A stretch of DNA of 64,000 nt from Escherichia coli (GTDB lineage: Bacteria > Pseudomonadota > Gammaproteobacteria > Enterobacterales > Enterobacteriaceae). Position 1 is the first letter of the stretch, and the number at the start of each line of letters is the position of its first letter. The stretch lies in the NCBI RefSeq assembly GCF_003334785.1, contig NZ_QOWV01000019.1. The stretch is one strand, 5' to 3'. A program made the position numbers. This document shows, in pieces, positions 1 to 3,000 of the stretch.

Positions 1-3000
1 GACTTACGCGTGCGCAGGCCGACGCACAGGAGCTGAAAAATGCCAGAGACTCCGCTGAAGTGGTGGAAACCGCATTCTGTACTTTCGTGCTGTCGCGGAT
101 CGCAGGTGAAATTGCCAGTATTCTCGACGGGATCCCCCTGTCGGTGCAGCGGCGTTTTCCGGAACTGGAAAACCGACATGTTGATTTCCTGAAACGGGAT
201 ATCATCAAAGCCATGAACAAAGCAGCCGCGCTGGATGAACTGATAACGGGGCGCACTTTGACGGTGACCAGAGCGGCACGGTGAATGGTGTCACGCCGCC
301 AGCAGTTCAGCACCTGACCGCAGAAGTCACCGCAGACAGCGGGGAATACCAGGTGCTGGCGCGCTGGGACACGCCGAAGGTGGTGAAGGGGGTGAGCTTT
401 ATGCTTCGCCTGACCGTGGCAGCGGACGACGGCAGTGAGCGGTTGGTCAGCACGGCCCGGACGACGGAAACCACATATCGCTTCACGCAGCTGGCGCTGG
501 GAAATTACAGGCTGACAGTCCGGGCGGTAAATGCATGGGGACAGCCGGTGCACATACCCATTCGATGACATTTGTTTCAGGTGGTTCCAGTGGTGCTCCG
601 GGAAGTGGATCACCTGATTATTCTAAATACAGTGTTAACACTTCTTCTGCAGGCGCTCATACGCACTCTGTATCGGGTACTGCTGCAAGCGCAGGTGCAC
701 ACGCACATACTGTCGGTATTGGTGCTCATACGCACTCCGTTGCGATTGGTTCACATGGACATACCATCACCGTTAACGCTGCTGGTAACGCGGAAAACAC
801 CGTCAAAAACATCGCATTTAACTATATTGTGAGGCTTGCGTAATGGCATTCAGAATGAGTGAACAACCACGGACCATAAAAATTTATAATCTGCTGGCCG
901 GAACTAATGAATTTATTGGTGAAGGTGACGCATATATTCCGCCTCATACAGGTCTGCCAGCAAACAGTACCGATATTGCACCGCCAGATATTCCGGCAGG
1001 CTTCGTGGCTGTTTTCAACAGTGATGAGGCATCGTGGCATCTCGTTGAAGATCATCGGGGTAAAACGGTTTATGACGTGGCATCAGGGGACGCGTTATTT
1101 ATTTCTGAACTCGGTCCGTTACCGGAAAATGTTACCTGGTTATCGCCGGGAGGGGAATATCAGAAGTGGAACGGCACAGCCTGGGTGAAGGATACGGAAG
1201 CAGAAAAACTGTTCCGGATCCGGGAGGCGGAAGAAACAAAAAACAGCCTGATGCAGATAGCCAGTGAGCATATAGCGCCGCTTCAGGATGCTGTGGATCT
1301 GGAGATCGCAACGGAGGAAGAAACCTTGTTGCTGGAAGCCTGGAAAAAGTATCGGGTGTTGCTGAACCGTGTTGATACATCAACTGCACCGGATATTGAA
1401 TGGCCAGCACTGCCGTAGGGTAAAACATATAAATTCTATAATTAGATGTATCTCTCCATTTACGGCAAGGAAGGGGGCTTGGAAGACGTAAAGCATCTCA
1501 CACCGAGATTATTTTTTATATGTCAGGTGTCTGAAGTTTTGCTTTGGCTCTTAAAATGGTTTGCCGCGAGGTTTTGAATTCCCGGGCAATGGCACTTATA
1601 CTTACACCTGACTTAATTCGTTCGAATACCACCTGTTTCTGTTCTTCATTTAACACAGGTGGTCGACCAAAACGTTTCCCTGCGCCGCGGGCTCTTACTA
1701 TCCCGGAATGAGTGCGTTCAAGTAAAAGGTCTCGTTCAAATTCAGCGACTGCTGAAATTACGTGCATCATCATTTTTCCTGTTGGACTGGTCAGGTCAAT
1801 GCCCCCCAATGCTAAGCAATGCACTCTGATACCTGTTTCGGTCAGTTGTTCCACTGTTTTCCTGATATCCATTGCATTACAACCAAGGCGATCCAGTTTT
1901 GTCACAATCAATTGATCACCACATTTCAGGCGAGCAAGCAACCGGTTAAAACCAGGACGCTCACTGGTTGCTGCTGAGCCGCTAATGTGTTCTTCGATTA
2001 TTTGCTGAGGTTTGATTTTAAAACCTGCACTTTCGATTTCCCGGCGTTGATTTTCGGTGGTCTGATCCAGCGTTGATATCCGACAGTAAGCAAAAATTCG
2101 AGACATAGTGAGACTCTATACGAAATTGGTGTTCATATCATAATGCATCTCAGAAAATAATTTTGATTATTTTTGTGCATATTTGTATGTACACGTTCGA
2201 AAATAAACGAATGCGTATGCAACCCCGTAACTTTGGTGAGACCCAAAATCGATTTTGTGAAAAATGGCTTTAACTCGGTTTGTTTTTCGAGTTCCGGGCG
2301 GACTCAAGGAAGAAGAATAGTGTTGCGTGTTATTTTAACCAGATTTCAAGTTGTTTGGTCGTGGAAAAGTGGAGCAAAATGTTGTTAAAGTGGAAAAATG
2401 ATAAAAAAGTAAGTTTATTATATTACATTTTACCATTTAAATTTTGGTTGTCTTTAAGAACTGATATCGCTGTTTGTAATAATTCTTTGTTATCCAGCCA
2501 TGATTTTTTCTTTATGTTTCCTTCAATGTAATCAAGCAATGTTCTGGTATTGATAGGTCTTCCCTGTTTTGCTACTTCCACTACAGCATCCCCTAGGATA
2601 ATTCTGACTTCAGGAAGCTGCGCAGGGAACCACTTTAGGGTGTCTTTTGATTTCATGAATATATTCCTTAAAATATTATTGATTTTCATTGCGATATTGT
2701 ATGTCTGATTCAGGATATGTTGACTTATACATCGGTTTTGTCTGGGTTATTGGATATGCCAATCCCTAATTTTATTAGAGCATGACTAAAAATGCTGAAT
2801 ATGATAAGGAGCGAAGTGATTATCAGTATGCTGTTCATATAGCCTCGAATTAGTAATGTGTTATATATGATATAGTTGACAATTTTTATCCTGGGTGTTC
2901 TTAAAGTTCGTAGATAAACATTGTCGTTTCAGGTATACAGGAATGCTAACAGATGGCGGCAAAAATCAGGCGGTTTATGGCGCAAGCTGAAGTGGCAACT

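Follow-up and report, generated by a model that had tools for sequence, protein, structure and literature searches.

The first 843 nucleotides of the window (the whole 64,000-nucleotide stretch of Escherichia coli contig NZ_QOWV01000019.1 analyzed here) are very probably a row of scars left by deletions in the late operon of Qin, a defective lambdoid prophage, in which remnants of nu1, J and stf follow one another. The sequence-only reading had described a tail-fibre coding region broken across three frames without a spanning ORF, and the ORF listing and stop-codon map bear out that layout: with frames numbered as position mod 3, frame 0 stays open until a stop at 282-284, frame 2 from 239 until a stop at 566-568, and frame 1 from 439 until a stop at 841-843, while no single frame in the stop-codon map spans 239-843. 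The label given to the layout was wrong: the first frame is not tail-fibre coding but nohA, a homologue of the terminase small-subunit gene, and the segments belong to three different genes. Because both joints fail to keep frame, they fully explain the three-frame pattern, and the three ORFs appear to be by-products that require no expression.

The identity of each segment was established by comparison with lambda, with an intact prophage and with known structures (Table 1). By blastn, window 1-251 corresponds to lambda 453-703 (nu1) at 98.4% identity, and window 242-545 corresponds to lambda 17302-17605 (J) at 92.1% identity. True nu1 sequence ends at about window 245-251, and the last 12 codons of nohA (TGRTLTVTRAAR, stop at 282-284) are J DNA read out of frame; NohA lacks its native C-terminus, the last 12 residues (part of the gpA-binding end) being replaced by TGRTLTVTRAAR. 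The C-terminal part of Nu1 gave no match in the PDB. The J piece yields 96 translated residues that match lambda J residues 605-700 in PDB entries 8IYK and 9E7M (E=3.6e-57). The J gene is incomplete, with ∼101 of 1132 codons, cut at both ends, and beyond J, ORF 281-568 reads another 7 codons of stf DNA in the wrong frame (PVHIPIR) before its stop.

The third segment was identified through L005, an intact prophage of strain STEC409 that carries J, lom, a 1075-aa stf and tfa in order: window 542-1407 is the stf 3′ end plus tfa of L005, at 96.9% identity, and the stf piece corresponds to Stf residues 977-1075 of this 1075-aa intact relative. A chance ATG at 535, within J DNA, opens the 102-aa ORF 535-843. 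Alignment to an intact stf gene had been proposed as a way to locate frameshifts; only 542-1407 proved to be stf and tfa, and the breaks are deletion joints.

Table 1. Positions of the gene remnants, deletion joints, HxH motifs and neighbouring genes in the window.
Feature	Position	Strand	Basis or remark
nohA 3′ part (lambda nu1 homologue, terminase small subunit)	1..284	+	blastn, RefSeq, translation
Deletion joint 1 (nu1 to J)	242..251	.	blast overlap and three-way display
Tail-tip gene J, internal fragment, ∼codons 601-701	246..545	+	frame 2; blastn and PDB match
Deletion joint 2 (J to stf)	542..545	.	CAGC in both parents
Side-tail-fibre gene remnant, last 99 codons and stop (gp37-type receptor-binding tip)	544..843	+	L005 alignment, PDB match
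HxH motif 1 of fragment (GAHTHS), motif 3 of 7 of intact tip	547..564	+	aligns with gp37 H929/H931
Tip (head-domain) loop between descending and ascending strands	565..651	+	gp37 alignment; variable, receptor-contacting part
HxH motifs 2-5 of fragment, motifs 4-7 of intact tip	652..765	+	gp37 alignment
HxH motif GAHTHS	652-669	+	
HxH motif GAHAHT	694-711	+	
HxH motif GAHTHS	721-738	+	
HxH motif GSHGHT	748-765	+	
tfaQ, intact tail-fibre assembly (chaperone) gene	843..1418	+	94% to lambda tfa; start overlaps stf stop (TAATG)
pinQ, serine invertase gene, convergent with tfaQ	1516..2106	-	ORF listing, RefSeq

We defined the joints by the overlap of blast segments (10 nt at 242-251 and 4 nt at 542-545) and by a side-by-side display of the window with its parental sequences. 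Joint 1 shows the microhomology GATA(A/C)CGGGG, with GATAACGGGG common to nu1 (GATACCGGGG) and J (GATAACGGGG); nu1 ...GAACTGATACCGGGGTTG and J ...GTGGATAACGGGGCGC combine into window ...GAACTGATAACGGGGCGC, with the crossover within GATA (242-245). The loss is the equivalent of lambda 698-17301, ∼16.6 kb, comprising A through I and the first ∼600 codons of J. At joint 2, J ...GGGGGCAGCAGGGCG and stf ...GCTTCAGCCGGTGCAC combine into window ...GGGGACAGCCGGTGCAC, with the loss of ∼5.0 kb that held the remainder of J, lom and the first 976 stf codons; the two parental sites lie 5,042 bp apart in intact prophage L005. Both joints appear to be deletion scars of short-homology illegitimate recombination, and not sequencing errors or point frameshifts. 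An ancestral prophage with the order nu1-A-...-J-lom-stf-tfa would have lost two blocks by illegitimate recombination at short matches, the first beginning at nu1 codon 170 and reaching J codon about 600, the second beginning at J codon 702 and reaching stf codon 976, where the 4-bp match was CAGC. We infer the order of the deletion events and also the parental arrangement, the latter from other lambdoid prophages because no intact ancestral Qin at ydfJ was recovered.

Several other origins of the frame pattern have to be weighed against deletion. Homopolymer read errors had been suggested as a source of the frame changes, and sequencing or assembly indels of this kind would have split one continuous tail-fibre gene into three frames; this is barely conceivable, since the frame changes fall exactly at the two deletion joints, where the sequence passes from one gene to another that intact phages carry 16.6 kb or 5 kb away. 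Moreover, the same sequence is found in dozens of independently assembled complete genomes: over 2,400 bp the match is 100% in many genomes that were sequenced independently of one another, and the left joint alone is present in 52 genomes. Decay of a single stf gene in place, through point frameshifts and substitutions, has a negligible probability in our view; the last segment and tfaQ are genuine stf/tfa sequence, but the first two segments are nu1 and J, with 92-98% DNA identity to lambda, and the sequence flanking both joints is too well conserved for gradual decay. The sequence-only reading had offered a decayed stf gene or a deletion fusion of J-like and Stf-like segments as alternatives: the fusion stands, extended to a nu1-J-stf triple remnant, whereas the decayed stf does not, and with three segments that match different proteins the idea of a single broken gene is refuted.

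We also rejected several other mechanisms. A programmed ribosomal frameshift or recoded gene does not fit, as each shift is a joint, and the genes it joins are separated by 16.6 kb or 5 kb in intact phages. A Pin/Gin-type invertible tail-fibre segment was dismissed on the crossover sites: the prophage part of the window contains none (AAACC NN GGTTT core), two core matches elsewhere in the window are at chance level, and the joint partners bear no resemblance to half-sites. The related idea of Pin invertase acting at quasi-sites fares no better; the nu1 site looks loosely crossover-like by eye, yet no partner sequence has a half-site. For IS-mediated adjacent deletion, an IS remnant was seen at no joint. 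The case carries a caution, namely that three abutting phage-tail-like ORFs in three frames can be a chain of deletion joints and not a frameshifted gene. The scar chain is a textbook case of a prophage late operon whittled down, and it matters little in itself.

By gene content and order, the locus is the right end of the cryptic prophage Qin, nohA-J′-stf′-tfaQ-pinQ-ydfK / ydfJ: the Qin right-end order nohA-(stf remnant)-tfaQ-pinQ-ydfK-ynfT is present beside a truncated ydfJ. In K-12 MG1655, RefSeq marks this locus with the feature 'cryptic prophage Qin'. Many complete E. coli chromosomes match the first 2,400 bases of the window at 100% identity, and we took the RefSeq annotation from one such 100% identical genome. 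There, nohA ends at window 284; window 242-544 is entered as a pseudogene, incomplete at either end, for a 'phage tail tip protein J-related protein', and window 637-843 as one for a 'tail fiber protein' devoid of its N-terminus; tfaQ, pinQ, ydfK, ynfT and a 5′-truncated ydfJ are also listed. The feature is already known: it is an ordinary, RefSeq-annotated, variant allele of a well-known cryptic prophage. The exact left joint was found in 52 complete genomes, and both joints are covered in 92 of 5,426 genomes when at least 80% coverage of window 200-700 is required. As a side observation, pinQ has no part in the frame pattern.

The His-rich end of the region was analyzed by comparison with the tip of T4 gp37. 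In T4, the needle of gp37 holds seven iron ions, each coordinated by the histidines of HxH motifs from three chains, so that the tip has seven such motifs, and H929/H931, with a role in iron binding, are essential together with adjacent tip residues (PMC6957217, PMC11705849). The stf piece matches the gp37 tip (PDB 2XGF) with E=3.6e-25, and for the intact relative, the C-terminal 216 residues of Stf match gp37 785-1026 with E=6.7e-90, with all seven HxH motifs in register. ORF 535-843 contains five G[AS]HxH[ST] motifs, and all 10 of its 10 histidines lie in HxH pairs; five or more HxH arose in only 2 of 20,000 composition-preserving shuffles of this ORF. At the DNA level the motifs are imperfect direct repeats of 18-20 nt, 70-90% alike. 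Motif and repeat comparison thus confirmed the five HxH motifs and the imperfect direct repeats that had been read in the last segment; 'tandem' was the wrong word for them, as they are dispersed, with start-to-start spacings of 105, 42, 27 and 27 nt, and Tandem Repeats Finder reported no array at 535-843. The proposal that HxH is the metal-binding motif of fibre tips is backed by this strong homology to gp37; in a gp37-type trimer, each motif would give six histidines to one iron ion.

Part of this tip remains in the window. The fragment starts two residues before the equivalent of gp37 H929 and, judged by homology, keeps the last descending-strand iron site, the receptor-contacting loop and the four ascending-strand sites, while sites 1-2, the collar, the whole shaft and the attachment domain have been lost. 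In the intact Stf the collar (Pfam PF07484) is at residues 866-913, upstream of the break; the N-terminal attachment domain (PF08400), found in the intact Stf, is gone from the window fragment, and weak matches to PF03335 (Phage_fiber repeat) fall on the HxH motifs of the intact relative. Because two iron sites, the collar and the attachment domain are missing, the fragment could not form a fibre, and we infer that the remnant is non-functional as one.

If the remnant has a residual role, it is likely to be that of a stf′-tfaQ homology cassette for recombination with infecting phages, by analogy with K-12, where lambda picks up markers from the Qin stf/tfa homology region at about 2e-6 per phage (PMC3945230). 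A stronger claim, that the remnant is kept for function, either with the Stf tip ORF and TfaQ expressed or as a host-range cassette for lambdoid and T-even phages, strikes us as improbable. In its favor are the lambda acquisition of K-12 Qin DNA just cited and an intact tfaQ that adjoins the stf stop and translationally abuts ORF 535-843. The tip sequence also speaks for it: the segment is 100% identical to intact stf tips in other E. coli prophages, L005 included, 490-odd genomes share its DNA at 100% identity, whether the surrounding context is intact or truncated, and window 545-698, which is not lambda-like, matches fibre genes of two Escherichia phages of 167-170 kb, AV116 and AV118, at 87.7% identity. 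That conservation may reflect just recent common descent, however, and the losses described above leave a piece that cannot be a fibre. The ORF, moreover, owes its start codon to a chance ATG in J DNA; we found no promoter-like site on the + strand upstream of 535 and saw no sign of expression of 239-843.

To reconstruct how joint 1 arose, we compared the window with isolate F829, in which nu1 is joined to J at ∼lambda 16725 and J then runs through to an identical joint 2. The two alleles are 99.8% identical over 1,259 nt (3 positions differ), and F829 carries 579 bp more of J than the window. The sequence GATAACGG stands at F829's own nu1/J joint and recurs 579 bp downstream in J. F829 is an apparent intermediate: because the window equals F829 minus the 579 bp between the GATAACGG copies, the most economical history would comprise three deletions in the window lineage, the last a slip between 8-bp repeats. 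Block 1 would probably have been lost in two steps, first to J codon about 407 (the F829 state) and then by the 579-bp slip between the GATAACGG copies. A one-step origin of joint 1 from an intact prophage, by recombination of nu1 GATACCGGGG with J GATAACGGGG and independent of the F829 allele, is less probable, with perhaps a minor share of our belief. Its parental sites (nu1 and J 17302) match at 9 of 10 positions, and deletions with many different partners repeatedly end at nu1 697-699; but F829 and the window have exactly the same joint 2 and so few differences, and an ancestor bearing joint 2 would need two separate ∼16 kb deletions at the same nu1 base.

The recurrence of this nu1 end-point is the sole part of the locus worth pursuing. 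At least 11 different E. coli lambdoid prophage deletions, at Qin, DLP12 and other sites, end at nu1 lambda 697-699 (...GATGAACTGATA/CC/GGGG, slashes marking the ends), in two forms, one that ends with ...GATGAACTGATA at 697 and one that ends with ...GATACC at 699. The partners are J at 17302 in the window, at 16725 in F829, at 16486-16490 in AH21 and L138, at 16142 in E. coli B and in L015, L023 and L139, and at 15808 in L140; A at 2248 in L141; Z at 8065 in L050; two lom points 17 nt apart, in L134 and in A31 (an in-frame Nu1-Lom fusion); stf in L124; and a tail-fibre-domain gene in strain 114, L118 and L137. Microhomology at the partner sites is 0-7 nt, and TACC is used at three separate ones. 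Because the J fragments of F829, AH21 and B differ pairwise by 5-7%, with mismatches that start 10-35 nt from the joint, the comparison argues for independent deletion events. In a breakpoint-unbiased sample (120 IMG/VR contigs that hold nu1 590-627), we counted 12 distinct real joints in the interval lambda 628-1800, of which four lie at 697-699 and two at 880; 955/956 and 1018-1026 were also re-used.

We tentatively raise the possibility that the left joint lies on a deletion hot spot of single-nucleotide scale, set by a fixed DNA end or by a narrow selective window. A fixed end could come from a break made at a specific sequence, from stalling or from something that blocks end degradation, and would be joined to its partners through 0-7 nt of microhomology; a selective window could lie between a needed C-terminal boundary of NohA and the translation start of gene A. 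Other candidate causes were discarded: Pin quasi-sites are not supported by the sequences of the joint partners, IS remnants are absent from the joints, and there is no inverted repeat near lambda 697 that could form a hairpin. End-points 697 and 699 coincide with the cut positions of CCNGG/CCSGG enzymes; restriction at CCGGG 698-702 was nevertheless rejected, in that the other CCNGG/CCSGG sites of the sampled stretch (760, 848, 1130, 1184 and 1295) are unused. A Chi-like sequence, GCTGGATG, lies 8 nt upstream of the nu1 break, and we mention it as an idea only. A literature search on a nu1 deletion hot spot found nothing. If the re-use of the nu1 end-point proved mechanistic, it would carry more weight than the scar chain itself, with implications for illegitimate recombination in E. 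coli and for the way defective prophages take shape.

It is instructive to compare the window with the alleles and proteins to which it is related. K-12 MG1655 Qin (nohA-stfQ-tfaQ-pinQ-ydfK, in ydfJ) has the same chromosomal site and flanking genes, and near-identical DNA at window 7-245 and about 680-1000, but the alignment diverges between 246 and about 650. In K-12, nohA extends to lambda 719 and there meets the last ∼300 stf codons directly, producing stfQ (b1547) of 320 aa, in which the collar and all seven HxH motifs survive and from which a J fragment is absent, whereas the window has the J fragment and a shorter stf piece. Strain S3 carries a complete nohA and the first 245 nt of A (to lambda 955), followed by the same stf point as K-12; the K-12 allele equals the S3-type allele minus 236 bp, and appears to derive from this nu1-A′(to 955)-stf allele through the later loss of those 236 bp. 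S3 (A 955), L056 (A 880) and K-12 (nu1 719) have the stf end-point ACCGCGYTGACAGAC in common. K-12 and S3 represent an independent deletion series at the same locus, with the window allele a separate deletion lineage. The K-12 joint occurs in about 372 genomes, versus about 52-92 for the window allele, and K-12 stfQ is just one among several Qin alleles.

The window's remnants can also be set against the complete proteins. Its J fragment is identical to lambda tail-tip protein J (PDB 8IYK, 9E7M) at 93 of 96 residues over J 605-700, but it amounts to 8% of the protein and has neither the N-terminal part that enters the tip complex nor the C-terminal receptor-binding domain. Its C-terminal sequence is near-identical in places to the T4 gp37 tip (PDB 2XGF) and to lambda Stf (a 38-residue stretch was displayed), with HxH motifs in the same register, and in both systems a tfa/gp38-type chaperone gene adjoins; the window differs in that 99 residues are left, without collar or shaft and with five HxH motifs out of seven, and its tip-loop sequence differs from those of both T4 and lambda. 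Finally, other terminase-to-tail remnants of E. coli lambdoid prophages (DLP12-type nohD-J′, nohD-tail fibre and the Nu1-Lom fusion) share with the window the kind of scar and the nu1 end-point, while they occupy other chromosomal sites and have other right-hand partners.

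The nu1 end-point of the deletion in the window (...CTGATA/CC/, 242-251; lambda nu1 697-699) is common to no fewer than 11 distinct deletions among the lambdoid prophages of E. coli, found in the window and in loci L008-L013, L015, L023, L050, L118, L124, L134 and L137-L141. The joints carry 0-7 nt of microhomology, and the right-hand partners of these deletions range from lambda A 2248 through to stf. The same end-point takes 4 of the 12 distinct joints in a sample not selected for any breakpoint (120 IMG/VR contigs holding nu1 590-627, with joints scored between lambda 628 and 1800). 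Repeated use was also observed at other end-points: A 880, 955/956, 1018-1026 and one site in stf. One deletion from nu1 697, in strain A31, runs into lom and keeps the reading frame (L013, 2392-3126): its 244-residue product, of which residues 1-169 are Nu1, is annotated as an 'Ail/Lom family outer membrane beta-barrel protein'.

The DNA encoding the receptor-binding tip (window 545-698) is not lambda-like. Other prophages of E. coli have intact stf genes whose tips match it at 100% identity, and the tail-fibre genes of AV116 and AV118, Escherichia phages of 167-170 kb, show 87.7% identity to it. These matches are a sign that temperate phages and large phages of the lytic type have exchanged fibre tips. 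The window and the allele of isolate F829 differ at only 3 positions over 1,259 nt, all inside one 7-nt stretch of tfaQ (1082-1088), a cluster that looks like a small conversion patch.

Genes at the right end of Qin and its boundary
Gene	Product	Coordinates	Strand	Remarks
pinQ	serine invertase	1516-2106	-	tail-to-tail with tfaQ; intervening stretch 1419-1515
ydfJ	MFS transporter	3442-4725		abrupt start at prophage boundary; N-terminus missing (RefSeq)

Because no invertible segment or crossover-like site was detectable in the prophage end, pinQ looks like an orphan invertase. In two chicken isolates, Z1323CEC0007 and Z1323CEC0008, the locus is ∼1.1 kb longer and otherwise identical; in place of pinQ, RefSeq gives under the match a transposase of the IS481 family and two genes labelled 'recombinase family protein'. 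These entries, together with the additional length, suggest that pinQ is interrupted there by an IS insertion. The truncated start of ydfJ indicates that Qin lies within this gene.

At the K-12 locus (L002, 8886-10368), stfQ (b1547) is a deletion allele unlike that of the window. The allele of strain S3 (L007, 2543-4261) consists of nohA, 245 nt of A and stf, and loss of 236 bp from it yields the K-12 allele. Since K-12 and the window thus carry different deletion alleles, Qin has decayed in at least two separate lineages.
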